From a virus (taxonomy: Duplodnaviria; Heunggongvirae; Uroviricota; Caudoviricetes), in the IMG/VR virus record IMGVR_UViG_2778261121_000001, positions 1 through 55,913 of that record: a stretch of DNA of 55,913 nt; one strand, written 5' to 3'. A model generated the notes under the pieces. That model made no database searches. It was not told the origin of the DNA and saw only the letters and a program-made list of their open reading frames with translations. Shown here in pieces: positions 5,667-53,780 of this stretch; the first letter of the stretch is position 1, and every line of letters starts with the position of its first letter. The position numbers were made by a program, and so were the translations under genes.

Positions 5667-5966
5667 AAAAGGAAACAGAGTTTGCGGCTCTGTTCCTGAG
5701 CCATAAGTATCTGGCGACTGAATTAAGATTAACCGAATGTACTGGATTCATCAAGAAACGTTGAGTGGTCATACTAGGTAATAATGACCATTTACTAAAC
5801 ATCGTTGTTCTCAAAGAAGATTTAAGTCCAGGTTTTTGGTGACTCTAAAACCTTACCTTAACTCGAAATCGTGCCGTAAGTATCTGGCGACTACAGATAT
5901 TGCAACTGCAAAGGCAAGCCCAAAGGTATTTGCAGCTAGGCGCGATAAAACTAAGTGAGGCCTGTT

Positions 5967-6050
5967 ATGGTTAACTTACTGTTCAAAATCGTGCCGCCGA
6001 TGTTCGCGATTATCAAAGCGATCATTGAGTACGTAAACCAGCGTCCATAA
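5967..6050 (+). CDS. candidate small hydrophobic peptide (27 aa, MVNLLFKIVPPMFAIIKAIIEYVNQRP)
   Basis: ATG with GAGG 8 nt upstream; followed directly by a strong plus-strand terminator; below the ORF-track size cutoff. Confidence 0.25.
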   Translation: MVNLLFKIVPPMFAIIKAIIEYVNQRP

Positions 6051-6064
6051 CGCTAGTTGCTACA

Positions 6065-6096
6065 GGCCCCATCAAGAGCATGGGGCCTCTTTATCG
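6065..6096 (+). terminator. intrinsic terminator
   Basis: GGCCCCAT-loop-ATGGGGCC followed by a T-rich run. Confidence 0.55.
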
Positions 6097-6105
6097 TACT
6101 ATTGC

Positions 6106-6771
6106 TTATTTTTTACGGACTGAGTTGTTCACTGCTCTGGCAATTTTCTCCCGCAATTGCTGCGCTCCGTGGTACTGAACCGCAATATCCCGCAACTCGT
6201 TCACCAGTTCTCTAATCTGGTGATCTTTAAGCTCATTATTTGGGTGATGGGTAACAACTCTGGTTAATTCACCCTTGTCTTTTGCTCTTACGTATGCAGC
6301 TCTTGTGCATTCGACCCATGTATTACCGCCTACATTAACTTCGTAGATTAGGCTGGACTTATCTATCAATTCGGAACAAATACGGGCCGTGGTCTGGCAA
6401 CTAGAGCATTCGCAGTTATCGCGGAAACCGTGGTCTACTGGCTTCGGTTTCACATCATCAACTTTTTCTACCCTATTGGAATTTAAATACTTCGAAGCCT
6501 TGCTATGCCAATCGCTGGTTTTAGGATCTTGTCCATCCATCAAACGCCAGGCTTCAGCGATTAACTCATAACTAGTGACTGTAGCTTCCTGCGCATCACC
6601 AATAAGTCGTGTAATCTCTCTTTCAAGCCGACCGCCTAGCTCTGTTTTAGTGCAATGTTCTGACCAATCGCCAGCCTCAAGCAGCGCGAGAATGCTTAAA
6701 ATATCGTCCAATAGATCAGTGGTATTATCGACTTCCTTCTGAAACTCACCGGCTACTGATTTATGCATCAT
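6106..6771 (-). CDS. hypothetical protein (221 aa)
   Basis: ORF in track; first of a tightly packed run of minus-strand genes with overlapping stop/start codons. Confidence 0.5.
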   Translation of the reverse strand: MMHKSVAGEFQKEVDNTTDLLDDILSILALLEAGDWSEHCTKTELGGRLEREITRLIGDAQEATVTSYELIAEAWRLMDGQDPKTSDWHSKASKYLNSNRVEKVDDVKPKPVDHGFRDNCECSSCQTTARICSELIDKSSLIYEVNVGGNTWVECTRAAYVRAKDKGELTRVVTHHPNNELKDHQIRELVNELRDIAVQYHGAQQLREKIARAVNNSVRKK

Positions 6772-7421
6772 TCGTCATCCTCATCCGAGTCATCCTCATC
6801 ACAGGATGAGAGTAGTGGGTTAGTCATTCGCCCTACTTGAGTGGCGTAGCCACGCCGACAGAGATTGCGCAGCACACTGTATATTTCGAACATCTCGGTT
6901 CGTTCATCGCCAACATCAAGCTCAGATGCTATAGCGTGGCATTCAGTCGCGAGAGCCGATATTTTCTGAAATAACTCTGCATTATTCACTGTTCGACTCC
7001 TGCGGCGTTCTGGTAGTGGCATCCAGTGTGTGACATTGCTAATCAGACCATATTCATTAGTTTGAGGATGGTTGCCGTTATCGTCTCCGTATTTAAGACT
7101 CTCCATAAAGCCATAATGCCTATCACCATTAACGCTCACAAAGCCGTAATAAGCAGGTATAACGCCGATCTCACACGTAACCAGTAAAGGAAAACTAGTT
7201 CTCCAATTTAGCTCGCCAATTACAGGCATTCGCTCACTACAGCTTATCCAACCATCCTTAGATGCGGCTGTATTGGCATAGGCCTTACGGTGCTTCTGTA
7301 GCTCTGCTGCAATCGCTCTCACGACTTCAACTGGTGCCCTTGCAGCAAACTCAATGTTGGTGATCAGCTCATTAAGATATTTCTCGCTTGGGTAACATTT
7401 CTTATTGTTAACGGTGGTCAT
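6768..7421 (-). CDS. phage protein with a DUF551-like THWMPLPE motif and acidic C-tail
   Basis: ORF in track; motif recalled from phage DUF551 proteins, recognised by eye only. Confidence 0.45.
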   Translation of the reverse strand: MTTVNNKKCYPSEKYLNELITNIEFAARAPVEVVRAIAAELQKHRKAYANTAASKDGWISCSERMPVIGELNWRTSFPLLVTCEIGVIPAYYGFVSVNGDRHYGFMESLKYGDDNGNHPQTNEYGLISNVTHWMPLPERRRSRTVNNAELFQKISALATECHAIASELDVGDERTEMFEIYSVLRNLCRRGYATQVGRMTNPLLSSCDEDDSDEDDE

Positions 7422-7606
7422 TAGGCAGCTCTCTCAACAACAAGCAATTCGTCGTAGTCATAATCAGTTTCGGAACCATCCGTACCGAACAGAGTCACTT
7501 TGTCATCTTCCATCCAAAAAGATTTAACCGCACATTGTTGACCTTTAGATGTTATGAGCACATCACCAGGGATTACGTCTTCAGCGCGAACTTCTAGTGT
7601 TCTCAT
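7421..7606 (-). CDS. hypothetical protein (61 aa)
   Basis: ORF in track, stop/start overlap with neighbours. Confidence 0.4.
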   Translation of the reverse strand: MRTLEVRAEDVIPGDVLITSKGQQCAVKSFWMEDDKVTLFGTDGSETDYDYDELLVVERAA

Positions 7607-8133
7607 CGTGCTGACCCCTCTTTGGTTAAAATGCCTGCTGCAATGCTGTTTATGATGCTGTCAGTGCATGGAGTAGAAAGCTGGGCATCTCCAGCAATTT
7701 TCATGACCTCAACATCCGCATATCGAATACCGAGGTGTATCAGACCGGCTATACCTGACTTAAGTCGAACATTTTCCATAAACAGATCTTTTTCCCGCTG
7801 TTTAGCGGCTTCCAACTCCATCGACAATTTTTCCAACTGCTCTTTATGCTTCTTGTATTCCTGATACGCGTGCCAAGACTGACCTTTGCGCACACTATCA
7901 GTGATATCAGCAACCTGCTCTGGTGTTAGCGTGGTCAGTGGCTGTGCTGGAAAAATCATCACTTGCCCGGCATCCCAATCAAAACCAGCCTGAATTGACT
8001 GAACCTCAACTGATGGTGTTGAACCGATGCGACCAGGCGAATGAACAACGATCGTTACATCCATATCTCGACGATGGCTGTGGTTGTTGGACAAAATACG
8101 ATTCACCAACTCAGAAAATTTGGAAAATTTCAT
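7603..8133 (-). CDS. hypothetical protein (176 aa from the MKFSKF start)
   Basis: ATG at 8131-8133 with GAGGG Shine-Dalgarno and ATGA overlap with the upstream stop; the longer track ORF to 8262 would overlap the upstream gene. Confidence 0.45.
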
Positions 8134-8453
8134 GTTGATCCCTCTTTCTCTCCCCGGATAATTCTGTTGCACACATCCACACACTCGTCGCAGATGAAAA
8201 CGGCGTCCCCAGCAATTAACTTTTTGACGGCGTACTGGGATTTGTTGCAGAAGCTGCAACAAAGTGTTCGCCTGACTGATAAGGATGGAGCGCCAGATGT
8301 CAGCCGCTCCATATCGTTCTTGCGACGCAATATCACACGGCTGAACTCAACCAGTTTCTCCGGGGATATCTCCTCCTCCGTAGCGAGCGTCTCTAGTCGT
8401 TCGAGTATGTTGAAGGCTTTTTCCTGGGTAATAGCAGAATGCGATGTGGTCAT
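8130..8453 (-). CDS. small protein with a ClpX-type C4 zinc-binding domain
   Basis: [34 protein letters not shown] closely resembles the ClpX N-terminal zinc-binding domain; start set at the MTTSHS ATG with AAGGAG Shine-Dalgarno. Confidence 0.55.
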
Positions 8454-8454
8454 C

Positions 8455-9177
8455 TCACTCTCCTTTGATGCGAATGCCAGCGGCGCGGGAATCATTCCAT
8501 CGCTTTACTTCTTCACGAATTACGTCAATGCATTCTTTCGAATCCATTAGGTAATCTTCATCAAAAAGACGTTCCTGTTCGTTTTCTATCGCAACAATGA
8601 TTGCTTCAACTAACTTTTGTGCCTGAGAACCACTTTCTAACTCTGCTATGCGCTTACTTCCATCCGCGATTACTCCCTCGTAATATTCACGCTGCTCGTT
8701 GAGTTTTGATTTTGCGGCTTCCAACGCCGCAACCAATTCGTCTACAGTTCCGGCAGCTTGCAGTGCGTAATCGGTAATAGACATCTCATGATCAATTTCA
8801 GTACCGTTCTCATTAGTTGAGGTGATAGCAAAATAATCAGAGTCGATTTCGTTATCAGCTAAGTGGCGTAGCGTATCGGCAACAAGCTGACCGTTTTCGA
8901 TTAACAGCTTCCCTACCGTTAGCGCAATATCCTCGTTCTCCTGGTCGCGAGATTTGATGTATTGCTGGTTTCTTTCCCGTTCATCCAGTAGCGCCAGCAC
9001 GGTTTCTGGTCCGGCCAGAATTTTGAAGGCGTTGAGCGCATCAATATCAACACCGCTATCTTTAAGTTCCTGCTCGCTTATCAGATCATCATCAACTGGC
9101 AACATTAACAGGCGTTCCATTGCCGGAATTGCACGCTCTGCCGCCTCACGCAGTGCCTGATAGTTAATTTTGGTCAT
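8455..9177 (-). CDS. hypothetical acidic protein (240 aa)
   Basis: ORF in track. Confidence 0.5.
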
Positions 9178-9178
9178 A

Positions 9179-9478
9179 TCACATCACCCTGAATCCGTTG
9201 CATTTACGTAAAAAATCGCAGATATAGCCCTTCATTTTTTCGTGCCAATCTCGATCATTCCCATTGCACCAACCATCAGGTGGAGTCCAGTTTTCTATCA
9301 GAGCAGCCATTTTCTTTGCTTTTGCAGGAGTAGCTGTTGCGGTATCGCAGTAATGACGAGTGTCGATCAACGTATCCATACCATCGATATCAAGTACGCA
9401 AAACCATGTGTGATTCGGCATTTCAACAGATGGTATTTGTTGCCCACGTCGACGTTTATCAATAAGACATACAGTCAC
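9179..9478 (-). CDS. hypothetical protein (99 aa)
   Basis: ORF in track. Confidence 0.45.
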   Translation of the reverse strand: MTVCLIDKRRRGQQIPSVEMPNHTWFCVLDIDGMDTLIDTRHYCDTATATPAKAKKMAALIENWTPPDGWCNGNDRDWHEKMKGYICDFLRKCNGFRVM

Positions 9479-9981
9479 TGGTTGCCTCCTTCACGTAGCT
9501 CGGCGGCAAAAGCTACTGCGTGATCATGATGTTCAAGTGTGTATGCACACTCCGCAAACATCTCCACGCCCTGCGCACGTACTTCAGCCAGAAAAGCGTC
9601 GGTGGCTGGAGTTTCTATGCACTGCATTTCATGCAATGTCTGCATGTCCATAAAATCCCCGTCAGGCTCTGTGATAGTGGCGTTATATGCCGAGTAAATT
9701 TTTGACGCTTCATGTGCCAGTTCCGCAGCCTTAGATCGCAATGCCACATTCTCCGCCGCTAATGCGTCTCTCTGCGCCCGCAACTTCTCAATTTCGGCAG
9801 CCATGTAGTAACCAACCATAGCGAAAGTGGCGAAAGGGTAGTCAGAATCATCAGGAGATACGGAGGCCATTAGCAGACCATCGTGCATGTTCTGGCTTCC
9901 ATCAGTGATGGATACCGCATAAGAATCGCTGGTTTCCCGTTTATACAATACGACGACCGGGTTCTTGATTTTCTCTCTCAT
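9475..9981 (-). CDS. hypothetical protein (168 aa)
   Basis: ORF in track; overlapping stop/start. Confidence 0.45.
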   Translation of the reverse strand: MREKIKNPVVVLYKRETSDSYAVSITDGSQNMHDGLLMASVSPDDSDYPFATFAMVGYYMAAEIEKLRAQRDALAAENVALRSKAAELAHEASKIYSAYNATITEPDGDFMDMQTLHEMQCIETPATDAFLAEVRAQGVEMFAECAYTLEHHDHAVAFAAELREGGNQ

Positions 9982-10523
9982 TACGATGCCTCTAACTTAT
10001 CTAACTCTTTCAGCCCTTCACGTACCGCGTTCACAATGCGTTCCAGATACTGGTATTTCGGGTTTGGTACCGTTGGCCAGTCGGCATACCACGGATCATC
10101 ACCAAAGAGATTCAGCAGTTTGTTACCGACGCCGAAACAACAGCAGCTTTCTTTTACGTCATCGGCGTTTTCCGCCTCGTCCCACATTTCACGAGCCAGT
10201 ACGGCGTCGATTTCTCTCTCTCTTCGTAACTTTATGATTTCTGACTTCACGAAAAGCAGATTTGCATCGTTGTCATCGTCGACCGTGCTTCGCAGTTGAG
10301 AGTCGAAATAGCCGATTAGATACTCGTTGCTGACCCGCTTAATGAACGTCTGCACATCATCACCGCCCATAGCAAACCAAGCCGCAGTCCACGCTTTTCC
10401 GTAGCAGATGATGGTGATTCTTCCCTTACCAGGTTCGTAGTTTTCAATCATCACTCGAACCGGATCGAGGCGTTCCAGATCCGTCAGCACAAAGGAAAGA
10501 ACATCTATTTTTTCGACCTTCAT
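9981..10523 (-). CDS. hypothetical protein (180 aa from the MKVEK start)
   Basis: ATG at 10521-10523 with GGAGG Shine-Dalgarno and ATGA overlap with the upstream stop. Confidence 0.45.
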   Translation of the reverse strand: MKVEKIDVLSFVLTDLERLDPVRVMIENYEPGKGRITIICYGKAWTAAWFAMGGDDVQTFIKRVSNEYLIGYFDSQLRSTVDDDNDANLLFVKSEIIKLRREREIDAVLAREMWDEAENADDVKESCCCFGVGNKLLNLFGDDPWYADWPTVPNPKYQYLERIVNAVREGLKELDKLEAS

Positions 10524-11161
10524 GCAGCCTCCCACGCGCTCCAGATCAGCGATTTGTGTTTTTCATAACGTTTGATGTGTACCGGTTTCAGAAGCGCAAT
10601 ACCTTCAGTGACTTTCGCCATTGCGCTTAATAGCAACGGGTGTTCTATACCTATCCTCTCCATGTACTCGACAACATCAGCGTTGGCACCAATCTCTTTG
10701 CCGTGAAAGAGTACGTCCAGCATCAGTTCTTTCTCTGCGAGGTAGACAGCTGAAAACTCGGGATCGCGACTCACGATAGAAGAGGTATTGTCGAGCAGGT
10801 CAGCCAGCTTGATCATGCGCGTCTGCATGTCGAGATTTTGCTCCAGCTCCCGGACATTGATGATGAAACGCTGTATTCGATTGCCGTCTTCTGGCCTTGC
10901 AATGTTGGTCAGAGCCTGAACCATTTCAGCTACGCGCTCACCGAAGTGATCACGAACCATCTCTATGGTTACATGGGTGTCTTCGACCACATCATGCAGA
11001 AGCGCCGCGATTTGCATCTCCACGGTTCCGTCATGCAATGCAACAATCTCTCGGACAGCAACCGGGTGGTTGATGTAGTCTTCGCCGGTATATTTTCTTT
11101 TCTGACCAACGCCACCATGAGCGCCAGCGGCGAACATATGAGCTTCGGAAATACTAGACAT
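10520..11161 (-). CDS. HD-domain small alarmone hydrolase (SpoT/Mesh1-like)
   Basis: RelA/SpoT-type HD motifs (HDVVEDT and the N-terminal H...HP region); 213 aa with no synthetase domain. Confidence 0.6.
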   Translation of the reverse strand: MSSISEAHMFAAGAHGGVGQKRKYTGEDYINHPVAVREIVALHDGTVEMQIAALLHDVVEDTHVTIEMVRDHFGERVAEMVQALTNIARPEDGNRIQRFIINVRELEQNLDMQTRMIKLADLLDNTSSIVSRDPEFSAVYLAEKELMLDVLFHGKEIGANADVVEYMERIGIEHPLLLSAMAKVTEGIALLKPVHIKRYEKHKSLIWSAWEAA

Positions 11162-39643: not shown

Positions 39644-41983
39644 TTACTCTTCTACTGACTCGGTGGGATTGTCTTTTGATCTCCGGTCGTCGATTGCCTG
39701 TAAAGCCGCAATGATTTCAGCTAGTGGCTTCTCCCGATACATCTCGACGATCTGTGATTTGGTGTATTTCTTGTCACCAATTTCTACTCGACCGCTGGCG
39801 TTCTTTGGCAGGTATCCTTCTTCCAGCATGTACTCGACGAGCGATTCGATAACGTCGAGGCCACGAGTAGGATCGAAGTAGAATTTCCAGGTGCATTTGC
39901 CATACGGTGGTGCAACTTTGTTTTTGATGCATTCTGCGCCTACGTCCTGGCCGATCTTCTCTTTACCATCCTTCATCACCGATGCACCAAGACGGATACG
40001 TACAGAAGCGTAGAACTTCGGTGAATCTCCACCTGGCGACGTAGTAGGGTCGCCAAACATTACACCGATTTTTGTGCGAACCTGATTCAAGAAGATGATG
40101 CAGGCGTTGTATTTGCGTGCCCACAAAGCCAGAGTAGGGAAGTTCGCACTCGTCGCACGAGCCAGTGCCGTATTGTCGTTCATGTTTAGCTGATCTTTGT
40201 CTTTGGCTGTGCCTTCAGCCATCTTTTCGAACTTCTCGGCTTTGGAGTTCGGAACCATAGACGCAAGAGAGTCAGCCACGATACAGATAGGTGCTGATTC
40301 GGGGATAAGCTCTTCATCACGAACCAATTTAAGTATTGTGCCGATCAACTCTACAGAGTCTTCGAAGGTATCTGGCTGCTTGTACACCCACTGACCGTCA
40401 TCCTCATCTGCGTTCAGGCCATTGGCTACAGCCAGGCCAACGTCAAAACTGTTTTCATGATCGAGGAATACCGCCAGACCATCTTGTTTTTGAGCGGAGA
40501 TCATCGCTGCTGTTGCAAGGAATGTGTTGTGGCTGATAATCCCGTTAGACCAGAAAGAGTGTGTTTCCGGCATCGCTACGTCGAACGTTGGTGCTTCACC
40601 TTCCTCAATAGCCACGACTTCGTCGTAGAACAAGTTAGAGCCAATTACCGCTGCCAGTTGTGCAAACAGATGCTCGTTAAAACGATTCTTTCTGCCAATG
40701 AAGGAGACATAGATTTCTCGCAGTTTGTCTATTCCGACACGATCGCCGCGGCCAATAACGTGGTCTACCAGAGCGTAGTCTTCACGGGTGGTCTTGGTGA
40801 GCGACTCGTAGAGTGATTTCACTAAGCCGCTGATGTGCGGAACATAGCCTGAGTAAGTGCGGTCAAAACCAATGTCCCGTTTGGTTGCCACTGATAAACG
40901 TGCCGGAGATTCGAAACCAATCGTTGACAGAAAAAGGTCGTAATTAGAGCCACTGAATGACAGCCGGTAATATGTATTTTCATAACCCGCGACGTGTTTT
41001 TCAGAGATAGTTGACGTAATCCCCAGATTCAGGAGCATGAGGCGAATTTGCTGTAGCAGCAGCCCACTCGCGCTCACAACCTCAATGCAGCGACCATCAT
41101 TGACGTGGCATTCCAGCTCAAAGTAGCCGCGAAGGAATGCAATTTGAGCCTCGCTATTGGCGCGACGCACACTCAACGGAACCTGCTTGCCAGCAGCTTT
41201 CTCATACTCCAGACCATATTCTTTAAAAAGCAGCGAACGCACCTCTTTGCTAAACAGCACATGGTCTTCCGAGCCGTTATGTTTTCTCGTAACTGGCATC
41301 TTGTCTGATACCAGCGAAATGAGGCGGTAGTACTCATCCTTGATGAAAGGATCTGTGTTAGAAAAATTCACTGAATTTTCAGAGGCCACGTATCCGTCAG
41401 CAATTAAATAGCCCATCAGTTTTGCGATATTGGCATCCAGGTGCTGATCGCCGAATTGATGTGTGCCAACCATTGAAGGAATCGTGTCGCCTACACTGAT
41501 TTTTTCAGCATGTCGCCAGACGACATTACCTAAGTCGTCAACCACACGGATTGGGTGACGGAACGTAGCCTCGATATAACCGCCTGATGCCAGCTTAATA
41601 CGCTTGAATTTGCGATGGTTGTTCCATGTCAGGTGTGAGGTCTTCTCTATCACGCCATTTTCATTGATGAGTCCAACGTTATGCTCTACATCGCGAGTAG
41701 TGCATGTCGCTTTGTACCCTTCAATCTCAAACAACTCTTTCACTGTTACCATTCCACGCTCCGTCAGCAGCATGGTGTCTGCGGTAACACATTTCCCCGC
41801 ACTTGGAGGACCGAATACTTCGACGATACGACCACATGGGAAGCCGCCATCGTAACGACCGGAAATAGCTTTGTTTAACGGAGGAAAGCCTGTGTCAATC
41901 CAATGAGTTACTTTCTGAATTTCGTCGTTGCTACCGATTTTCTTTTTCAGAGCAAGTGCCAGTGCGGATTTTCCTTTTGCCAT
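39644..41983 (-). CDS. RecA-like recombinase interrupted by an intein
   Basis: Exteins (64 + 293 aa) give a RecA-sized protein with Walker A GPPSAGK|TFLAT split by the intein. Confidence 0.8.
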   Translation of the reverse strand: MAKGKSALALALKKKIGSNDEIQKVTHWIDTGFPPLNKAISGRYDGGFPCGRIVEVFGPPSAGKCVTADTMLLTERGMVTVKELFEIEGYKATCTTRDVEHNVGLINENGVIEKTSHLTWNNHRKFKRIKLASGGYIEATFRHPIRVVDDLGNVVWRHAEKISVGDTIPSMVGTHQFGDQHLDANIAKLMGYLIADGYVASENSVNFSNTDPFIKDEYYRLISLVSDKMPVTRKHNGSEDHVLFSKEVRSLLFKEYGLEYEKAAGKQVPLSVRRANSEAQIAFLRGYFELECHVNDGRCIEVVSASGLLLQQIRLMLLNLGITSTISEKHVAGYENTYYRLSFSGSNYDLFLSTIGFESPARLSVATKRDIGFDRTYSGYVPHISGLVKSLYESLTKTTREDYALVDHVIGRGDRVGIDKLREIYVSFIGRKNRFNEHLFAQLAAVIGSNLFYDEVVAIEEGEAPTFDVAMPETHSFWSNGIISHNTFLATAAMISAQKQDGLAVFLDHENSFDVGLAVANGLNADEDDGQWVYKQPDTFEDSVELIGTILKLVRDEELIPESAPICIVADSLASMVPNSKAEKFEKMAEGTAKDKDQLNMNDNTALARATSANFPTLALWARKYNACIIFLNQVRTKIGVMFGDPTTSPGGDSPKFYASVRIRLGASVMKDGKEKIGQDVGAECIKNKVAPPYGKCTWKFYFDPTRGLDVIESLVEYMLEEGYLPKNASGRVEIGDKKYTKSQIVEMYREKPLAEIIAALQAIDDRRSKDNPTESVEE
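40526..41791 (-). mobile_element. intein with LAGLIDADG homing-endonuclease domain (422 aa)
   Basis: Starts with Cys after GPPSAGK, ends with HN before Thr; LAGLIDADG-like blocks (LMGYLIADGYV, FLRGYFELECHV). Confidence 0.7.
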
Positions 41984-44834: not shown

Positions 44835-44959
44835 GTGCTTTCCCTTTTACTTATCATTTTATATTGATTATATCATTGTGATGATAAGGCAAGGAGTTCG
44901 AGGATAGGGGATATGAGGGGATAAGGGAAAACATGGCCATAGAGGCCATGTTTATTGGA

Positions 44960-46129
44960 TCACGTCTTAATAGTTTCTGCTACGTCGGCTAATATAGCTT
45001 CTAGTCGTTCTCCCTCTTCAGGTCTGAAGTAAAGAATGTTGGGGTTAAACCCGTAAAAGACAGTAACGTCAAGGTCTGGAAGATACTCCTTCCTGCCGAC
45101 CAAATCGGATGGCTTGTTTTTGTTGTTAAACAATGAAGTTGCCCGGCTGCCACACGTCAGCACATAGGTCGGACGCACCAGATTGATCTCTTCACGCATA
45201 AAGTCGGTGAACTGGCCGATCTCGTCTTTGGTGTAGTCTTTTTCTTTGTCTTTAACCTTCTTGCAAACGCCTGTGACATAGAGATCGCCCATGCGTAAAT
45301 CTCCAGCCGTCAATAGCTTGGCCTTAAAATCGTCGTATCCGTTCTCCATAAAGTAACCGGTTCGAGCATCATTGCCGTTCGCATTGTCCAGAATGATCAT
45401 GATTTTCGGCTTAATACCAATGCTGGGGCGGATTAGTTCATCACCTAAGCCCATTTCAGCCGCCATCCGTGTCATGAGCACGTTAATCTCAGCCGAACGT
45501 TTGGGGTTCATCTCAAACGGACGTGAGGCTTTAACTGCGTCTATGACAAGATTTCCCATCAATTCAGCCTGGTCGCGTAGGCGCTCTGGATCAGTTGCTG
45601 GCAGACTACCTGGCTCGATGGATGCAAACGCCCCTACTTTTTGCAGCGATTCGCGCACTCGACTATTACAGGCACGTTTCTCGACAGCTTCTTCGAATTG
45701 CGCAAGTGACTCGAATTTGCCACCAACCTTTTCTCGCGCTCTCATGATGGCCTGGCAGCCATTCTCAGAACACCCCTTCACAGCAGAGAAGGGCGCATAC
45801 AGCACCTGGCTGCCATCTTCAAGCGTGCGGATCTCGATTCGGTTAGATGACACGTTAACGTCTGGTGGCAATACGCGAATACCATAGGTCAGCGCATCTT
45901 TAACCAGCCCCTGGTGTTTATCTTCGCCAAGAATAGTGAGAGCAGCAGCGAAAAACTCTGCGGGATAATGAGTTTTCAACCACATAGATTGATAACTGAT
46001 CAAGGAGTAAGCAACAGAGTGTGATTTGTTAAAGGCGTATCCACCGAACTTTTCAAAGGCGTCCCATATTTCCTGGGCTTTCTCAGGGCTAAGACCTTCC
46101 TGCTCGGAAATAACTTTTGCAATTTTCAT
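44960..46129 (-). CDS. DNA polymerase III alpha (DnaE) C-terminal fragment
   Basis: Begins MKIAKVI...FEKFGGYAFNKSHS, aligning with the DnaE fingers region; own ATG in the conserved GGGAAAACACATG context. Confidence 0.75.
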   Translation of the reverse strand: MKIAKVISEQEGLSPEKAQEIWDAFEKFGGYAFNKSHSVAYSLISYQSMWLKTHYPAEFFAAALTILGEDKHQGLVKDALTYGIRVLPPDVNVSSNRIEIRTLEDGSQVLYAPFSAVKGCSENGCQAIMRAREKVGGKFESLAQFEEAVEKRACNSRVRESLQKVGAFASIEPGSLPATDPERLRDQAELMGNLVIDAVKASRPFEMNPKRSAEINVLMTRMAAEMGLGDELIRPSIGIKPKIMIILDNANGNDARTGYFMENGYDDFKAKLLTAGDLRMGDLYVTGVCKKVKDKEKDYTKDEIGQFTDFMREEINLVRPTYVLTCGSRATSLFNNKNKPSDLVGRKEYLPDLDVTVFYGFNPNILYFRPEEGERLEAILADVAETIKT

Positions 46130-46149
46130 GTGTTTTCCCGTTGCTAGCT

Positions 46150-46851
46150 TCAAATGCTTGCTTTTTTTAAGATATTTGCGATTTGAGTGTTAGATATGCC
46201 GAATTTTTCTCGCAACTTTTCGTAGGTTGCGCCAGCTTTGCGCAAGGCGACCACTTCAGCTCTTGCTTCGTCATCCAGCTTTTTGGATGCCCTTGAGGCA
46301 ACGATCGGCCCACCAATACGTGCCCATTTCTTCCCGGTGACGATATGGTGAATATAAAGCTCAGTTAAACCATATTCGGCCGCGAGGTCTTTGTTCAGAG
46401 CACCCTCTGACTTTTTAATGCGAATAGCAATGACGACTTCGTTGGTTAGCTTGGCGTTGTAGCGCCTCTCACCAAACTCAACGGTATCGTGTGCAATGGC
46501 GTCAGCCATGTTGTCGACTTGAGTGCCATACGCGAGATTGAAGGGCGCATTGTTTGATGGTTTACCGTCAAGATGACGAATAAGTAAGCCTTCTGGTCGT
46601 TCTCCGTGGAATGCAGTTGCTACCAGATAATGAACTGTGCGGTCGTATTTGACGCCGTTGACGCTTAGTTTCACGCCAAGATGTCCAAAATCATTGATTA
46701 CGCGAGGTTTTAGGATTTGCCCCTTCTTCACCCATTCGCCCCCTTTGGGGGCTGTTTGTATAACATCTAATGAGCGAATGCGTCCTAAACTGGATGCTTC
46801 GTAATAACCTTCAAATTCAGGAATAGATTTCCAAACTTCTTCCACCGTCAA
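46150..46851 (-). CDS. HNH homing endonuclease inserted within dnaE
   Basis: 233-aa ORF in a different frame from both dnaE halves, overlapping the upstream stop and ending 18 nt before the downstream ATG; family assigned from the split-gene context, no HNH or NUMOD motif checked. Confidence 0.6.
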   Translation of the reverse strand: MTVEEVWKSIPEFEGYYEASSLGRIRSLDVIQTAPKGGEWVKKGQILKPRVINDFGHLGVKLSVNGVKYDRTVHYLVATAFHGERPEGLLIRHLDGKPSNNAPFNLAYGTQVDNMADAIAHDTVEFGERRYNAKLTNEVVIAIRIKKSEGALNKDLAAEYGLTELYIHHIVTGKKWARIGGPIVASRASKKLDDEARAEVVALRKAGATYEKLREKFGISNTQIANILKKASI

Positions 46852-49211
46852 ACTCCAAAATCAACAATATCAGCGTTGTCACTCATCGCTTCGTCATAGG
46901 TCCTGCGTTTGCCGTCAGAGCACAGCAGCATGGCCTTTTTGTGGACTTCTACTGTGCTTCCGTCTTCAAGTGACAGTGTCACCCAGCCTGCTTGTGCTCG
47001 TTCTACAAAATCGCTGCCGATCGCTTTCATCTTTTCCATGTTCTTCTTACCGATGGCGGAACGCAGAGCATCAGCCTCCGCCATAGAGAATCCAGCGAGC
47101 ACACGAGAGCTTTTCATAATTTGCTCTTGATAGAGCAAAACGCCGTTAGTTTCTTTGGTTGTTTCCTCAAGACGAGGATGAATTGAATGTGGAGCCATAA
47201 AACCTTTGGCGACAGAAACATAGTCATCCAACATGCCTGACTGAATTGGCCCCGGCCGGAAGAGCGCAGTTGTAGCAACAACCGTTTTAAAGCTCATTGG
47301 CTCAATTCCACCACCTAAATCTTTAAGCAGCTTGCGCATTGGGCCTGATTCAAGCTGGAAAACACCTTGAGTGTACCCAGCAGCAAAACCATCCAGCACC
47401 TTGCGATCCTCAAGAGAAATGGCATCAAGATTGATATCTTCACCTGTGTTCTCTTTTATGTAGCGTTTTGCACTATCGAGCAAATCGAGAGTTGCCAGGC
47501 CAAGCACGTCTAGCTTAATTAGGCCCATAGCCTCGCAGTAACGCTTGTCAAATGCGATACAACGCGCGTCACCACGGCGTTCAACCGGTGTACGTTCTGT
47601 CAGAGGAACACCTGCTACGATCATCCCTGCCGCATGTCTACCAAAGCCACGCATAAGGCTTTGTAACTTGCAGGCTGCATTGAATGCATCAGGATATTTT
47701 GTTGCGTATTTGTCGAGACTTGCCAGTTGTTCGCGCAGCTCTTCCAATGGAAGGCTATCATCCTCGACGTTCTTCAGTTCTTTTGATACCGCCATATCTG
47801 CGGACTCCACACCATAAATACGAGCGGTGTCACGTAGTGCAGAGGCTGCGCCCAGGTAGGTGAAGTTCGGAATGCCTGCAACGTAATCTTCGCCGTAGCG
47901 TTCATTCAGATACTCGATCACCTCATGGCGACGTGCCTGGCTGAAGTCCAAGTCCGCATCTGGCAAGTCGAGACGCTCAGGGTTGATGAAACGCTCAAAC
48001 AGAAGACCGTGACGGATTGGGTCGACGTTGGTTATGCCTATGCACCACGCCACCAGAGAACCGGCAGAGGAACCACGACCAGGCCCGACAGGAATGCCAG
48101 TTTCACGGCTGTGATTCATCAGATCGCGTACCATCAGGAAGTAACCACAAAATCCCAGGCGAGTCAGCGTGTCCATTTCGTACTTAAGCCGTTCAACATA
48201 AATCCTGTTCTCAGAAGCCGGTGGTGTGTAGCCAAACTCTTTTGTGGTAAGACGTTTACGCAGCCCAGCAACGGCCAGTTTCATCAGCGTTGCAGGCTCG
48301 TCGTCTGCCATCTTTGGCAGTGCTGGTGGCAATTCATGCCAGCGCCATGTGCAGGCATCGATAATGGTATCCTGCGTTGTTGAGGCCATTGCAGCTGTTA
48401 CCGGCACATCCATGCGAACGGAGAAGGCTTTAAGAGCCTCAAGGAGATGGCGGCGACCATTGACGGCGTTATCTCGCTGGTGGGGGATACGCAGACGATG
48501 CGGCTGGTCGATTTTGATGTTGTTCGTAACCATGTGCGCAATGTCTTTAATGTCTGCATCGTCGATCGATTCGTAATAAGCGGGATAGAACGCTACTGGC
48601 TCTATTTTCAGTGCTCTGGCGACTTTCATCGCCCGGACGTTAATCTGGTCGTAGAATGGTGTAGGGTGCGGATAAACCACACTATAGAAGTTGTCTTTTC
48701 CACCTGCTGTAATCAGTGAGCTTATGATTTTTGCAAAATCGTTGCGTTGGAACACGCTACCGATGTCGGAAGTGAGCAGGATGATGTTGCCTTTGGCATA
48801 TGTAGAAACCAACTGTTCGAGCGAGAGACGCGGTACAAAGTAGAACTGTTCTCGTGTGTTGGCCACCGTCATTAGTTCGCAGATGTCGCGATATCCTTGC
48901 TCATTTTTAATTAGAGCGGTAAACGAGTAGTTACGTCCTCGCTCTAATGATTCCATACATCCCTTAGACTCTTTAGCAAGTTTAGCCCGGTACTCGTATG
49001 TGGGATCATCAACGATATTTAGTTTCACACCACAAATAACCGCCATGTCGTCACCAGCGGCACGTTGTAGTGGAATAACACTCGCAATATTCATGCTATC
49101 TGCTGAAATTACAGCGGTGTAGCCAGCTTCTCTGGCAATCTTCACCGCGTTTTCCGCTTTTAAAGCCGACTCCCCAAGTGAGAAGTCAGTTCGAACCATC
49201 AGTGCCTTCAT
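46848..49211 (-). CDS. DNA polymerase III alpha (DnaE) N-terminal fragment (PHP and polymerase core)
   Basis: 787 aa aligning with the DnaE N-terminal two thirds; conserved start context. Confidence 0.85.
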   Translation of the reverse strand: MKALMVRTDFSLGESALKAENAVKIAREAGYTAVISADSMNIASVIPLQRAAGDDMAVICGVKLNIVDDPTYEYRAKLAKESKGCMESLERGRNYSFTALIKNEQGYRDICELMTVANTREQFYFVPRLSLEQLVSTYAKGNIILLTSDIGSVFQRNDFAKIISSLITAGGKDNFYSVVYPHPTPFYDQINVRAMKVARALKIEPVAFYPAYYESIDDADIKDIAHMVTNNIKIDQPHRLRIPHQRDNAVNGRRHLLEALKAFSVRMDVPVTAAMASTTQDTIIDACTWRWHELPPALPKMADDEPATLMKLAVAGLRKRLTTKEFGYTPPASENRIYVERLKYEMDTLTRLGFCGYFLMVRDLMNHSRETGIPVGPGRGSSAGSLVAWCIGITNVDPIRHGLLFERFINPERLDLPDADLDFSQARRHEVIEYLNERYGEDYVAGIPNFTYLGAASALRDTARIYGVESADMAVSKELKNVEDDSLPLEELREQLASLDKYATKYPDAFNAACKLQSLMRGFGRHAAGMIVAGVPLTERTPVERRGDARCIAFDKRYCEAMGLIKLDVLGLATLDLLDSAKRYIKENTGEDINLDAISLEDRKVLDGFAAGYTQGVFQLESGPMRKLLKDLGGGIEPMSFKTVVATTALFRPGPIQSGMLDDYVSVAKGFMAPHSIHPRLEETTKETNGVLLYQEQIMKSSRVLAGFSMAEADALRSAIGKKNMEKMKAIGSDFVERAQAGWVTLSLEDGSTVEVHKKAMLLCSDGKRRTYDEAMSDNADIVDFGV

Positions 49212-49389
49212 GTGTTTTTACCTTTCTGGTTTTTTTGATTTTGTCATTGGGGAAGCCTACGAACTTCCCATGCATCGAAATCGCAACTTCTTTTGCTGAT
49301 TGGTGACAATCGGGCTTGTCTGGACACACCAGACAAGCCTTACCAGTTTCAGAAGCAGCGATAAGAGAGCCGAAACATCCTTTACGCAC
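49186..49389 (-). CDS. possible small Cys-rich protein (67 aa)
   Basis: ORF in track overlapping the dnaE start by 26 nt; contains C-x-x-C-x5-C-H. Confidence 0.25.
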   Translation of the reverse strand: MRKGCFGSLIAASETGKACLVCPDKPDCHQSAKEVAISMHGKFVGFPNDKIKKTRKVKTHEGTDGSN

Positions 49390-49391: not shown

Positions 49392-50627
49392 TTAACCAAA
49401 TATTTTTTGAACAACTTCACGAGCTGCTTGTGCAGAAGCTGAAGGGAGTTTGTTAATGAAAGAACGCTCAATACCTGTCACAAAGTCGCCTCTCATCATT
49501 CCAATCTTGGCCGACAACAAAAGCTCACGAGGCCCAATCGGTTGGCTGATGTTGTGTTCTTCGTATCCATCGCGAACGATACCGGCAAACTTAACCATCT
49601 TTTCAGCGTATTCATCCACGATGCCAGCATTTATCAACATGTTGATCTCTGCCTCTTTGCTCATGTATTTCACATTCGAAACGATGCCAAAACGCGAAAA
49701 GTTCGCGGCGTTCTGGATGTTTGTACCCTGGTACAAGCCGGTTTCATCACCAGATCCGTTCGTGTTGCCAGTGCCAATGAAAGCAAACCGTTCATGCGGA
49801 GTAATGCGACGCCATTCTGGAGTCGCCTCTTTGATGACCAACGCTTCACCTTCCAGCACTGGCTGATACACGCCAAGAATTTGTGGAAACGCAAAGTCGT
49901 ATTCATCCGCGAGGTAAACCCAGCCATGCTTCATTGCGAGCGCAAGCAAGCCAGGTTCGAAATACGTAGAGCCATCACGCGCCAGAATTTGCCCCGTAAC
50001 ATGTGCCTCTTCCATTGATGCTGTATGTTGGGCACGGATCAACGGACGATTGAGCAAAGCACATAGCTGTGTAGGCAATGACGATTTGCCTGTTCCTGCA
50101 TGACCCCACAAATAGCCAGGTATGCCAAGTTCAAGCATCATGAAAATATCTTTGATCAGTTCGAAGTTGCCATATACGTAGCCTTTCTTCACTTCGGGAA
50201 CGAACTCTGGATACGGCGTATTGACGTTGACGCTAACCATGAGCGGCGTCCCACGTTTTGTTCCGAGTTCTTCCACCGTTACGTTTAGCAGTTCGTGAGC
50301 TGCGACCAGATCTGTCTTGTACTCAACTGTGCCTGTGTAGCCAGGGCTACTGGTCAAGCCAGAAGATTTGGCCATTTCGCTTTTTTGCTCGGCACGTTTA
50401 GCTTGAATTGCATCAAGTGCCTTTTTCGATAGCGTTGGCTCATCTGGAAACTGCGTTGTGTACATTTTCAGTACGGTGTCAGGATCGGCATCTTTTACTG
50501 ACTCAGGAATGCCCTCGCAATTACCATTGGCTACATGGGACTTAAAATAGTGAAATGATTTGCCGCACCACTTGCAAACAAGGTAATCAGAATGATTTTT
50601 TTCATTTTGCAGTGCAGTAGTCGTCAT
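49392..50627 (-). CDS. AAA+ ATPase (MoxR/CobS-like) with N-terminal zinc ribbon
   Basis: Walker A GHAGTGKS, Walker B YLADEYD, N-terminal CKWCGK...C. Confidence 0.7.
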   Translation of the reverse strand: MTTTALQNEKNHSDYLVCKWCGKSFHYFKSHVANGNCEGIPESVKDADPDTVLKMYTTQFPDEPTLSKKALDAIQAKRAEQKSEMAKSSGLTSSPGYTGTVEYKTDLVAAHELLNVTVEELGTKRGTPLMVSVNVNTPYPEFVPEVKKGYVYGNFELIKDIFMMLELGIPGYLWGHAGTGKSSLPTQLCALLNRPLIRAQHTASMEEAHVTGQILARDGSTYFEPGLLALAMKHGWVYLADEYDFAFPQILGVYQPVLEGEALVIKEATPEWRRITPHERFAFIGTGNTNGSGDETGLYQGTNIQNAANFSRFGIVSNVKYMSKEAEINMLINAGIVDEYAEKMVKFAGIVRDGYEEHNISQPIGPRELLLSAKIGMMRGDFVTGIERSFINKLPSASAQAAREVVQKIFG

Positions 50628-50722
50628 GCGTTTTTCCTTTGTTCTCTAATGAGCGTTCAACTTCTTATATAAATATACCATTAACTATCGTAAGTGGTTA
50701 CTTATCATTAAGGCTGTTTTAT

Positions 50723-52831
50723 TCAATTCAAAATGATACGAGATAGTTCAGTAACTACAGATGAACCAAGACTATCAACGCTCGTTACCAGGGCATGATT
50801 TGAGTAAAATCTCTCCGGTGCGTCAGTCATGATGCCAATTGCCATCAAATCAATGTCAGTCTGCGTTTCAATTTGCTTCGCAACCGAACGCAAATGAGCG
50901 TCAAAACCTCTCCCAACAGCCCACGGCGCGCCATCGCTCAGAACAAGCATGATCTTCCTGTCCTCCAAGCGACCGGAAAATAACGATGCAAGGCTGGCTA
51001 TGCTTTCACCATCCACGTTATTAAGAAGTGGGAATGTGTAGCCTACGCACCCCATACGTGAGCGAACTTCGCGAGAATTTACCTTTTCATTCCAATTTTT
51101 GATGATAGGTAGCATTAAAGATTCAAAGCGAGAGAACTCATACTTGACAGCCTTAAGTTCTCCTGCCGCCATATGACTACCAAATGTAGTGAAGCCGGTG
51201 ATAATGTTGGGAACATTTATTCGATCAAGGGCATCGGCGATGGTATATGCACTTGCAAGAGCCAATTGTATCGTTATACCACTCATTGAACCTGATAAAT
51301 CAATCACTTGTTGAACACAGGCGTTAACGGCTTTAGATTCTTCTTTTTTACGAAACACGCGATCATCATTCATTGCTAATCTGTAGATACTAGAACCATG
51401 AATGCGCCCCCGACGCTGGCCCGGTATAAACTGAACTCTGTTTCTGCTTGCTATTGCACGTTCCAGGTCTTTTGCTAGCGTCGACGAAACACCTGACGAA
51501 AGATGCTTTTCAATATATTTGTCGAAGAGCTGGTTGCCTTCAGGAACGATGCGATAGCGGCTGATTGGATATCCTCCTAAATCAATATCGGAGAATGTTT
51601 TAATAAGCCGTTTGATATGGGCTTCTGCCTGATCAATCGAGCCGATGAAGTCGTATGAGCGATTGTATGGCCTGTATTCGCTTTTCGAGCTTTCTGTTAA
51701 CTCGCTTTTAATCGTTTCGGATAGAGCATCTTCTGTCATGCCTCCGACTTCATCTTCTATGCTATCCAGCTCCTCTAAAGCCTCTTCCAGACTCATTTTT
51801 GACGGAGTTGGAATATCTGAAGAGCCGTCTTCTGTCGTTTTTCTTTTTTCGTGGTCAGCGGTTAATGATTCTGACGCCGCGTTATCAGAAGCACCAGAAT
51901 CTGATACCTCTTTATCATTTTCTGTATCATCGAATATTGTTTCTGATGATTCAGAATTATCTGAATCATCACTGTCGTTATTATCATGTTTGTGCTTACT
52001 ATGTGATTCTGATTTGATAGATTTGTGATTATCTAACGCTGAGGGTGTCTCATGATCTTCGTTATCTTCATTATTTTCTCCAGAGGCATCCGTCTGGTCA
52101 GCGTCTGAAGGATCGGAAGTTTTTCCCGGAGCTGACTCCTTACCTTTGCTTTCACTTTCAGTGTCTTTGAGGATCTTAGCTATGGTCGCAGCCACCTTTA
52201 CACAATCCTCGGTGCAAGACATGTTACGCACGGCCACATCGATACCATGTTCTTTTAATAATGAAATTGGTTTCTCAATGACAGGCCAATATTCATCCAT
52301 GAAATCTACGAACGGTGCTTGGCCATCCCAGGCTCTTACAACCGGACAGAGAAAGAAGTTTAGAAAAAGCGCGCGCTGATCTTTGCCACAATAAGCAATA
52401 GCCTCTGAAGCCTTTGGTTTAAAGACTTTTTCGATTATAAGGCGCTGAGTTGCCATCAGATTACGTCTTGTTCCGTTAAAGACCTGACCCATTTTTCGCT
52501 CGATGAACACGTCTTCTAAGGCATTCCATAGCGACCAGGAAGGAACGCGTCCTTTTTCTCTCATTTTGTTGGACACACGAATATCGGTAAACAAAATGTG
52601 AGCAACCTCATGATCGAGAAATCCGCGCACAGCATTCATCAATGCCGGTGTTGCGTTATCCGGGATTGATGGGATGTTTACGAGAATTGGCTCTCCATCA
52701 TCGTTATAGCGTACATAAGCGTCGTCCCCTCGTTCTGCAACAGGGATGTTTTTACCTGAAAGGAGAGCGACTACTCGTTTTACACTGTCACGGAAGTCCT
52801 GAACCTCTTTGATGGAACGTTTTTTAGACAT
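50723..52831 (-). CDS. von Willebrand factor A protein with long acidic Ser/Asp-rich linker (CobT-like)
   Basis: C-terminal MIDAS motif DLSGSMSG; central acidic low-complexity region. Confidence 0.65.
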   Translation of the reverse strand: MSKKRSIKEVQDFRDSVKRVVALLSGKNIPVAERGDDAYVRYNDDGEPILVNIPSIPDNATPALMNAVRGFLDHEVAHILFTDIRVSNKMREKGRVPSWSLWNALEDVFIERKMGQVFNGTRRNLMATQRLIIEKVFKPKASEAIAYCGKDQRALFLNFFLCPVVRAWDGQAPFVDFMDEYWPVIEKPISLLKEHGIDVAVRNMSCTEDCVKVAATIAKILKDTESESKGKESAPGKTSDPSDADQTDASGENNEDNEDHETPSALDNHKSIKSESHSKHKHDNNDSDDSDNSESSETIFDDTENDKEVSDSGASDNAASESLTADHEKRKTTEDGSSDIPTPSKMSLEEALEELDSIEDEVGGMTEDALSETIKSELTESSKSEYRPYNRSYDFIGSIDQAEAHIKRLIKTFSDIDLGGYPISRYRIVPEGNQLFDKYIEKHLSSGVSSTLAKDLERAIASRNRVQFIPGQRRGRIHGSSIYRLAMNDDRVFRKKEESKAVNACVQQVIDLSGSMSGITIQLALASAYTIADALDRINVPNIITGFTTFGSHMAAGELKAVKYEFSRFESLMLPIIKNWNEKVNSREVRSRMGCVGYTFPLLNNVDGESIASLASLFSGRLEDRKIMLVLSDGAPWAVGRGFDAHLRSVAKQIETQTDIDLMAIGIMTDAPERFYSNHALVTSVDSLGSSVVTELSRIILN

Positions 52832-52929
52832 GGCTAATCCTTTGTTATGAAAACAAATTATTTACTAGTGTGTTTAATGTAGCACTGCGCGAACAGGGAA
52901 CTAAGCCATTCGCGCAGGGAGAAGAGGGG

Positions 52930-53142
52930 TTAACAGATTCTGACGGCTAAAGACCCGGAGCCGGTATTGAGAAGCGTGAAGCGTTTGTTGTTAAGTTCGA
53001 ATATAAAGCCAGTTGTGTCATTCACACCAACCTGAATCTGCTCATTCGGTAGATCGGTGAGGATGTCAGCTACACACTCATCAGCTAATTTCTGTACGTG
53101 TCCGATCTCAAGAGCGATTAGGCTGGAAATAGTGGTTTTCAT
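52930..53142 (-). CDS. hypothetical small protein (70 aa), divergent from the HTH regulator
   Basis: ORF in track; position suggests a Cro/Coi-like role. Confidence 0.4.
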   Translation of the reverse strand: MKTTISSLIALEIGHVQKLADECVADILTDLPNEQIQVGVNDTTGFIFELNNKRFTLLNTGSGSLAVRIC

Positions 53143-53393
53143 TCAATCAATCCATTCTAACTTATACTATGGTAAGGAATACTACTAAAATTTGTATCAA
53201 TACTGAATACATCTATATCAGATGCAAGTTAATTTTCTTACCTATTTGGGGCTAGTTTTTCTCCATGCATGGACCTTTGCTCGGTCTTACAAGTGCCTGC
53301 CGAAAAAAATGATAATAGCTTTACAACCCTAACCTTTGATGTAATATCGGTAAGCACTTACCAGAGAGAATTAAACGCGCAAAGGTTGTAACA

Positions 53394-53780
53394 ATGTCTG
53401 ACAACAAGATTGAATTTATAGAAAGTCGCTATGCTGCTTTTATCGCAGGGCTGATTGAATCCTCACCTATGAGTCAGGCACAAATAGCCCGACTTATTGG
53501 TTATAAAAATGCCAACAACCTTTCTTTAATTAAAAGTGGCAAAATTCCTTTGCCTATCGATAAGGTTCGTCCGTTGGCGCTGGCGCTGGGTATTGAGCCA
53601 AGTCGTCTTATGATGATGGTGCTGGAAGAACGCCAACCTGAACTCGCAGCATTTTTATACAAAGAAGGCACCGCTCCTCTTAACGAGGACGAAAAACAGG
53701 TTCTTGCTGCATATAACGAGCGATTCGGTAAAGAGAAAGGCGCATCACAAAAGGTTGTTGAGGCCATAAAGTCTCTATGA
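53394..53780 (+). CDS. helix-turn-helix (XRE-family) transcriptional regulator, candidate repressor
   Basis: HTH MSQAQIARLIGYKNANNLSLIKSG; GGTAAGCACTTACC palindrome at 53349-53362 upstream. Confidence 0.65.
   Translation: MSDNKIEFIESRYAAFIAGLIESSPMSQAQIARLIGYKNANNLSLIKSGKIPLPIDKVRPLALALGIEPSRLMMMVLEERQPELAAFLYKEGTAPLNEDEKQVLAAYNERFGKEKGASQKVVEAIKSL

Follow-up and report, generated by a model that had tools for sequence, protein, structure and literature searches.

A CobS/CobT-like motor–adaptor gene pair in an SSU5-type Escherichia coli phage-plasmid, probably not a cobalt chelatase and tentatively an ATP-driven protein remodeller

The DNA considered here (hereafter the window, i.e., the whole stretch of 55,913 nucleotides (nt) of the Caudoviricetes record IMGVR_UViG_2778261121_000001) harbors two adjacent minus-strand genes separated by 95 nt. 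They encode a 411-amino-acid (aa) CobS-like AAA+ motor (49392–50627) and a 702-aa CobT-like adaptor comprising an N-domain, an acidic linker, a shaft and a vWA domain with a MIDAS site (50723–52831). Both open reading frames (ORFs) lie exactly in the interval (49392–52831) where an interpretation of the letters made without database searches (below, the sequence-only reading) had placed an adjacent gene pair. The pair almost certainly belongs to the CobS/CobT structural family; very probably, it is not a cobalt chelatase in this host.

The 4-kb stretch with the pair is 98–99% identical to the SSU5-group E. coli phage-plasmids Cyrano/pLF82, CMS-2020a and pHXH-2, matches 464 plasmid records in a DNA search and shares 74% identity with Salmonella phage SSU5. 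The complete phage Cyrano (OV696614.1; 126 annotated genes) is 98.5% identical to the window. This is not a chance pair of ORFs, since those 464 plasmid records carry it and CobS-like genes are present in 494 phage records (~434 of them cyanophages). The feature itself is already known, having been sequenced and annotated many times in SSU5-type phage-plasmids as, e.g., “porphyrin biosynthesis protein”, “cobalamin biosynthesis protein CobT” and “AAA family ATPase”. In the public record, the Cyrano genes CYRAN_47/48 are labelled “dimethylbenzimidazole phosphoribosyltransferase” and “cobalamin synthetase”; this is a collision with the unrelated CobT and CobS of Salmonella, which have nothing but their names in common with the phage proteins.

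The product of the cobS-like gene matches Pfam AAA_5 (PF07728; E 2e-15, 57.4 bits against a gathering threshold of 22) and, end to end, phrog_249 “porphyrin biosynthesis” (E 9e-106). Its best match among solved structures is the cobaltochelatase subunit CobS (9ujv; E 4e-26); after the chelatase subunits CobS/CobT, the next ones are midasin, CbbQ and NorQ. The call of an AAA+ ATPase holds, with all catalytic residues intact: Walker A (G175-HAGTGK-S182; 50082–50105, minus strand), Walker B D241/E242, sensor-1 N288, the Arg finger R312 and sensor-2 R367. The AlphaFold model obtained with an 89-sequence alignment (pLDDT 92.5, pTM 0.77) was compared with solved folds using a Foldseek library lacking CobS entries, and the best matches were NorQ, in complex with the VWA domain of NorD, and CbbQ (E 3e-16 to 1e-13; target-normalised TM 0.85–0.89; identity 16–21%), which makes the “MoxR-like” label of the sequence-only reading apt.

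The motor core is preceded by an N-terminal extension (aa 1–104; 50316–50627, minus strand) with a zinc finger (aa 16–37; 50517–50582, minus strand), two helices and a disordered spacer. It is found neither in cellular CobS nor in Vcrx089, a homolog from IncC plasmids considered below: the residues before Walker A number 125–366 in all phage CobS examined vs. 62–67 in cellular CobS and Vcrx089. The metal motif, C18-x2-C21-x9-H31-x5-C37, whose fourth position is His in at least 90% of homologs, was recognized in 112 of 117 homologs (retrieved with the phage nickie protein); in the alignment of 89 homologs, C21 and H31 never vary, and at least 90% of the sequences retain C18 and H26. The “zinc ribbon” initially assigned to the ATPase is not a four-Cys element; both the motif and the AlphaFold model point to a C2H2/C2HC-like beta-beta-alpha finger. 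A separate AlphaFold model of the extension (pLDDT 82.5) returned no match with E < 3 in a Foldseek search of the PDB, just non-significant small zinc fingers. Nucleic-acid binding by the finger was considered and found unsupported, there being no significant fold match in the PDB.

The adaptor matches Pfam CobT (PF06213; E 1.8e-27, 97.0 bits against a gathering score of 26.1) and, in residues 492–701, CobT_C (PF11775; E 6.5e-82, 274.9 bits against 21), as well as phrog_1576 (E 6e-300) and the solved CobT (PDB 9uka; E 1e-16). The hidden Markov model search suggested with the sequence-only reading thus returned AAA_5, CobT and CobT_C above the Pfam gathering scores, and membership in phrog_249 and phrog_1576 bears out the supposed likeness to the CobS/CobT pairs of other phages. 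The vWA domain expected in the 702-aa protein, delineated by CobT_C and by alignment to the Brucella MIDAS (50726–51322, minus strand), retains the five MIDAS residues (D511, S513, S515, N605 and D633, aligned with Brucella D422/S424/S426/N518/D546). The long Asp/Ser/Glu-rich segment, also pointed out before, spans aa 226–380 (155 aa; 51692–52156, minus strand), contains 30% D+E, 18% S and 8% K+R and is, by its composition, probably disordered; its possible action as a DNA mimic was dropped as an argument, since cellular CobT also has an acidic linker. The shaft is mapped putatively, by a phmmer alignment to 9uka_G, to approximately aa 463–503 (51323–51445, minus strand), collinear with Brucella Q373–R413.

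The N-domain of the adaptor (aa 1–225; 52157–52831, minus strand) is homologous to the M48C-like CobT_N (Pfam CobT, E 1.8e-21 for the fragment alone) and features the motifs R69-G70-x-x-D73, H74-E-V-A-H78 (HExxH; 52598–52612, minus strand) and N103-x-L-E106-D107-x-x-I-E111. A search of 1.84 billion cluster representatives yielded 1138 relatives; among the best 150 analysed, 131 were full-length and mutually no more than 50% identical. G70, D73, H74, E106, E111 and G120 are invariant in these 131 representatives, E75, H78 and D107 are present in 130 and the DxSGS MIDAS motif in 125. Judging by the alignment, the pattern fits a zincin-type HExxH site followed by acidic ligands. In cellular CobT-type proteins of Burkholderiales, HExxH is encountered in 0 of 118 sequences, and the same helix reads RGAADGAALRLRHSD, with “GAALR” replacing HEVAH. 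HExxH recurs in Vibrio phage ICP2, roseophage CRP-810, Gordonia phage Woes, two Rhizobium phages, the “peptidase” of cyanophage S-PM2 and the VWA protein of IncC plasmids. A supposition that HExxH tracks hosts lacking CobN was rejected: Rhizobium/Roseobacter phages keep it, and the relatives from Pseudomonas, Stenotrophomonas and Acinetobacter have lost it.

In the cobalt chelatase, the CobS hexamer and the CobT adaptor act on CobN, the holder of corrin and cobalt; CobT_N of Brucella, described as M48C-like, touches the small subdomain of CobS by R76 and D80 (bioRxiv 10.64898/2026.07.21.739949). The window proteins align collinearly with CobS–CobT of Brucella melitensis (9ujv/9uka) and share with it the AAA+ catalytic residues, the M48C-like N-domain (including R69/D73, the counterparts of the R76/D80 contact pair), the disordered acidic linker (155 vs. 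~90 aa), the shaft and the VWA domain with MIDAS, i.e., the whole motor–adaptor anatomy of the chelatase type. Unlike the cellular proteins, the window motor bears the ~105-aa zinc-finger extension and the window adaptor the HExxH…E-D…E motif.

The resemblance does not extend to the level of the chelatase proper. On the CobS equivalog model TIGR01650, the window motor attained 86.5 bits vs. a cut-off of 558.55 (chromosomal Cupriavidus CobS scores 518.4 bits), and on the CobT equivalog model TIGR01651 the adaptor attained 68.6 bits vs. 759.05, i.e., the scores are 6- to 11-fold under the cut-offs. The identity to cellular CobS is ~30%, which is unlike that of host-derived metabolic genes. In a search for cobN, all ORFs of the window proved to be 790 aa or shorter, and neither cobN nor any cob/cbi gene was seen among the 126 annotated genes of Cyrano; other genes of a chelatase pathway, which according to the sequence-only reading could have refuted it, were thus found in neither. 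The ribonucleotide reductase of Cyrano is annotated as NrdAB, a B12-independent type. E. coli is not known to possess CobN or the aerobic corrin pathway with its substrate, hydrogenobyrinic acid a,c-diamide. Salmonella and Klebsiella rely on the ATP-independent CbiK route (Roth, Lawrence and co-workers). Hence, with no CobN client in this E. coli phage-plasmid, the pair would not act as a chelatase here, and on these five counts (ORF length, gene content with NrdAB, equivalog scores, identity and host) the proposed hijacking of host CobN by viral CobST (PMC8651126) should be inapplicable in this host. The pair is held under strong selection in an element and a host where cobalt chelation would not be possible.

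An alternative function is hinted at by IncC plasmids and SXT/R391 elements, whose Vcrx089 (AAA_5 plus CbbQ_C) falls into the same CobS-like clade as the window motor. Deletion of vcrx089-090 reduced transfer 25-fold when the V. cholerae recipient possessed a type I restriction enzyme and had no such effect with its hsdR mutant; transfer was regained upon expression of vcrx089-090 in the recipient (Roy et al., PMC7498323). The same deletion led to 424-fold (EcoBI) and 906-fold (EcoKI) more restriction (Dimitriu et al., PMC11602122). In AntiDefenseFinder, vcrx089-090 constitutes a two-gene family, and “vcrx089” matches have been reported in Pseudomonas phages. The window motor is 30% identical to Vcrx089 over 285 aa (E 5e-28, 99.8 bits), and Vcrx089 itself matches phrog_249 (E 3e-47). 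The IncC VWA protein matches phrog_1576 (E 2e-49) and is collinear with the window adaptor, both having the HExxH/LED..IER N-domain (33% identity in tblastn, aa 1–187) and MIDAS. The IncC genes, too, are carried by mobile elements and situated beside genes for SSB and recombination, in the order CobS-like ATPase, 302-aa protein, ssb, bet, exo, DUF3150, VWA protein; in pNDM10469 (2804–10797), Vcrx089 and the CobT_N-like HExxH plus VWA protein are accordingly split by ssb-bet-exo and a DUF3150 gene, unlike the adjacent ATPase and VWA genes of the window. In PLSDB, ~827 conjugative plasmids match the window adaptor, and most of the sampled rows are N-domain matches of the IncC VWA type. No literature linking the metabolic annotation of phage “cobS/cobT” with the Vcrx089 anti-restriction family was found.

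Taken as a whole, the evidence is read, tentatively and with somewhat less than an even chance of being right, as pointing to a non-chelatase, ATP-driven motor–adaptor remodeller of a client other than CobN, acting where DNA entry, replication and host defence meet, with anti-restriction as the leading guess. Six CobS-like subunits would assemble into a ring, on which the CobT-like adaptor would dock via its N-domain, inserting the “shaft” into the pore; the vWA/MIDAS face of the adaptor would hold the client, an arrangement known from the solved structures of the Brucella cobalt chelatase and NorQ–NorD. The pair would be produced along with the phage DNA polymerase, from the same repressor-controlled block, and would use ATP to remodel another protein, possibly also cutting it in a Zn-dependent manner. 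As client, the leading guess is a host defence enzyme that targets DNA, in particular a type I restriction complex, because the IncC homolog Vcrx089, together with Vcrx090, shields entering DNA from EcoKI-type restriction. Taken by itself, a role in anti-restriction or defence evasion, with type I restriction being neutralised, is possible and, by analogy, suggested, though rather doubtful.

A number of observations weigh against this interpretation. Window CobS, Vcrx089 and cellular CobS appear about equidistant (pairwise scores of 99.8, 109 and 117 bits, window–cellular being 109), so the window motor seems no nearer to Vcrx089; CobT_C is matched by the window adaptor at E 6.5e-82 vs. E 4e-4 for the IncC VWA protein, placing the former nearer to the cellular type. 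Anti-restriction has been shown solely for vcrx089 together with vcrx090, the genes to which the phenotype maps (PMC7498323, PMC11602122); in the window, tblastn detected no homolog of Vcrx090 (best E 0.28) or DUF3150, and BLASTP of Vcrx090 against the window adaptor gave nothing. The IncC VWA gene was outside the five genes flagged by TnSeq, and it stayed on the plasmid during the complementation tests (PMC7498323). Because of the equidistance, the lack of Vcrx090, the negative TnSeq result for the VWA gene and the cellular affinity of CobT_C, the transfer of function from Vcrx089 is offered as a hypothesis rather than as a classification. Regarding proteolysis, HExxH is lost in the syntenic relatives Pseudomonas phage nickie, Stenotrophomonas phage ANB28 and the A. 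baumannii phage-plasmid; therefore, peptidase activity is not essential to the shared function. A Pfam search of the N-domain up to E 10 retrieved only Pfam CobT and no peptidase model, and since no curated peptidase model matches, such activity is to be regarded as putative. Genes of early/replication regions can still be metabolic, and the lack of CobN in E. coli rests on established knowledge. In the literature searched, neither a functional test of any phage CobS/CobT nor an experimental function for them was found, in keeping with the sequence-only reading, which had called their role in phage biology unresolved.

Two further scans bear on defence. PADLOC, applied to the motor, the adaptor and both small flanking ORFs, gave only a DrmE match at E 0.0014, regarded as noise; the pair is thus no known defence system. 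Avoidance of restriction sites was uninformative (3 EcoKI sites in the window vs. 7.6±2.9 expected; 15 EcoBI sites vs. 11.2±3.1 expected). CbbQ_C, part of Vcrx089, was not detected in the window motor at E < 0.01.

The leftward block in which the pair resides runs from orf70 through cobT, cobS, a 67-aa Cys-rich ORF and dnaE to uvsY-like, gp32-like SSB, exonuclease and recA genes, with sbcCD farther on. It is separated from a rightward gene for a helix-turn-helix (HTH) repressor (53394–53780) by a divergent intergenic region (53143–53393), the presumed early promoter/operator region. This layout suggests early, repressor-controlled expression of the pair. A scan of 46–54 kb for consensus promoters and terminators gave results not above chance, with fewer sites than in shuffled sequences. 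In the transcriptome of the LF82 lysogen, the Cyrano genes above the local background include the repressor and a toxin–antitoxin, but not cobT/cobS (PMC9928086).

Comparable pairs reside inside replication/recombination modules in four unrelated genome architectures. In siphoviruses and phage-plasmids of ~105–120 kb from Pseudomonas, Stenotrophomonas, Rhizobium and Acinetobacter, the genes follow the order small ORF, cobT, cobS, sigma70-region-2 protein, Cys4 protein (phrog_3616), dnaE, and the order cobT-cobS-(sigma-like)-(Cys4)-dnaE is common to SSU5-like elements, nickie, ANB28, the Rhizobium phages and the Acinetobacter phage-plasmid. The small sigma-70 region-2 protein (phrog_3741) stands between cobS and the Cys4 protein gene in the Rhizobium, Stenotrophomonas and Acinetobacter relatives and is missing in the E. 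coli lineage. In the podovirus ICP2, cobT-cobS lies just upstream of primase, helicase and family-A polymerase genes. In T4-like phages, S-PM2 carries a 740-aa “peptidase” (phrog_459; HEVGH, DWSGS) and CobS between gp47/gp46 and gp45/gp44/gp62, P-SSM2 has the pair upstream of the clamp loader, and Stenotrophomonas phage DLP_6 has it between primase/helicase and ThyX. The fourth architecture is that of the IncC plasmids.

The pair of T4-like cyanophages (phrog_249 plus phrog_459), a core pair of marine cyanomyoviruses, represents the same two-gene module as that of the window. The “peptidase” of S-PM2 displays HEVGH…NVIEDARIEK and the DWSGS MIDAS like the window adaptor, CobS is ~30% identical and both belong to a replication module; still, the adaptors are very divergent (BLASTP E 0.003, no Pfam match), and the cyanophages represent another phage lineage with another polymerase, in cyanobacterial hosts with tetrapyrrole chelatases of their own. 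NorQ–NorD and CbbQ–CbbO offer the closest structural parallel for the motor, being composed of a hexameric motor and one VWA/MIDAS adaptor on a client enzyme; the NorQ/CbbQ-like fold, the adjacent VWA protein and the intact MIDAS place the window pair among the MoxR-type motors with a VWA adaptor. NorQ and CbbQ differ from the window motor in sequence (the 16–21% identity given above), the N-terminal part of their adaptors is different, and their clients, nitric-oxide reductase and Rubisco, are absent here. By description, the same architecture is shared by the MoxR–vWA pair with an N-terminal metallopeptidase of jumbo phages and by the tail-development system of Acidianus two-tailed virus (ATV). 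A generalization whereby the motor–adaptor pairs of phages and plasmids, the core cobS of cyanophages included, would constitute one widespread ATP-driven machine of motor, vWA adaptor and zincin-like domain, disabling a host DNA-targeting defence such as type I restriction at the entry of foreign DNA, rather than B12 genes, is conceivable but distinctly doubtful.

Among the other explanations, that of a replication or recombination helper, in which the pair would mature, metallate or remodel a phage replication protein or clear proteins from DNA to let the phage replisome or recombination machinery work, is unlikely, yet worth considering. One candidate client would be the product of the adjacent dnaE, with its metal-binding PHP domain. 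In favour of such a helper, cobT, cobS, the Cys4 protein gene and dnaE are tightly packed, the block is kept from Enterobacteria to Rhizobium at only 27–33% protein identity, and the T4-like pairs are likewise found among replication genes (clamp/clamp loader in S-PM2, clamp loader in P-SSM2, primase/helicase in DLP_6). The related MoxR–VWA pairs NorQD and CoxDE insert metals into enzymes (bioRxiv 10.64898/2026.07.21.739949), and the zinc finger of CobS could bind nucleic acid, although it is the finger that lacks a significant structural match. The neighbouring polymerases differ (DnaE here, family A in ICP2, gp43 in cyanophages), leaving no single replisome client shared by all; IncC and SXT elements possess homologs but no polymerase, and the synteny with dnaE may reflect common descent in one deep phage lineage. 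The proposal that the pair serves virion assembly as a chaperone–protease is the least probable of the explanations considered. It draws on the MoxR ATPase and vWA protein with an N-terminal metallopeptidase of jumbo phages, for which virion assembly and proteolytic processing were proposed (Iyer et al. 2021, PMC7824862), on the role reported for ATV and on the HExxH conserved here. The window pair is situated in the early/replication block, and in Cyrano the distance to the structural module is ~20 kb or more; T4-like pairs have replication genes as neighbours rather than those for head or tail, and homologs are found on conjugative plasmids, which make no virions.

Likewise improbable, if slightly less so, is a true auxiliary metabolic pair, whose CobS/CobT would join a CobN-type subunit of the host to give more cobalt insertion and B12. 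The proteins are real homologs of chelatase subunits with all the features of motor, shaft and MIDAS, and the hosts of related phages (Rhizobium, Pseudomonas and Roseobacter) include aerobic B12 makers. Most annotations, like Liu et al. 2021, take this view; the hypothesis of a B12 boost is stated in PMC8651126, and similar ones are found in PMC3037004 and PMC11705849. It is contradicted by the absence of cobN from the element, the NrdAB annotation of the phage ribonucleotide reductase, the low equivalog scores and the distance from any cellular CobS, all detailed above, as well as by the conserved HExxH and the N-terminal zinc finger, absent from the cellular versions, and by the fact that cobT/cobS are not listed among the genes expressed in lysogeny. 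The general knowledge on E. coli (no CobN, no corrin substrate) and on the CbiK route of Salmonella/Klebsiella argues in the same direction.

The small genes around the pair deserve a brief description. The first gene of the leftward block, orf70 (70 aa, phrog_2627; 52930–53142, minus strand), lies directly upstream of cobT, and its position is also filled in Cyrano and pHXH-2; when the small ORFs upstream of cobT from five elements were aligned, the similarity was too weak for a homology call. The spacer between orf70 and cobT contains a GC-rich hairpin, CUGCGCGAA…UUCGCGCAG (52885–52917, minus strand), with no U-tract and a fold energy z-score of -2.9 vs. shuffles, which may be a processing or attenuation signal. 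On the other side of the pair, the 67-aa Cys-rich ORF between cobS and dnaE (49186–49389, minus strand), a truncated phrog_3616 protein, starts 2 nt past the stop codon of cobS and overlaps the start of dnaE by 26 nt; probably, it is co-transcribed context. It corresponds to the N-terminal Cys-rich knuckle of the phrog_3616 proteins, with G4 C5 F6 G7 … C19 C22 C28 invariant; full-length proteins of this family (180–226 aa) are encoded at the corresponding place in Pseudomonas phage nickie and in the A. baumannii phage-plasmid.

Farther downstream, the phage dnaE (44960–49211, minus strand) is split into ORFs of 787 aa (46848–49211) and 397 aa (44960–46153), equivalent to residues 1–782 and 788–1170 of the pHXH-2 DnaE, which is intact (1172 aa). 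Between the halves lies a free-standing homing-endonuclease ORF of the HNH_3/NUMOD4 type (46150–46851), with 4-nt overlaps, and the DNA identity to pHXH-2 falls from 96% to 84% downstream of this insertion. The place between uvsY and dnaE is variable: pHXH-2 and Cyrano have a hicAB cassette there, in pHXH-2 along with cspG, and the window lacks these genes (~44835–44960, vs. 6800–8500 of the related sequence). The recA-like ORF (39644–41983, minus strand) encodes 779 aa; the pHXH-2 counterpart carries the annotation of a LAGLIDADG homing endonuclease, a hint at an intein within RecA.

Overall, cobS is an often-reported “metabolic” gene of marine and gut phages, cited in support of a viral boost of host B12. 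The element described here resides in an E. coli host presumably unable to use the pair for cobalt insertion, and a plasmid homolog of the pair has a measured anti-restriction effect. If the anti-defence reading is false, the pair is an ordinary phage gene pair, already catalogued. If an anti-defence or DNA-linked role is true, many virome claims of “B12 auxiliary metabolic genes” would need revision, and energy-dependent anti-restriction machines would be established as a new class. The contribution thus consists in a testable alternative to a widespread annotation, for which the SSU5-like E. coli phage-plasmid would offer a tractable system.

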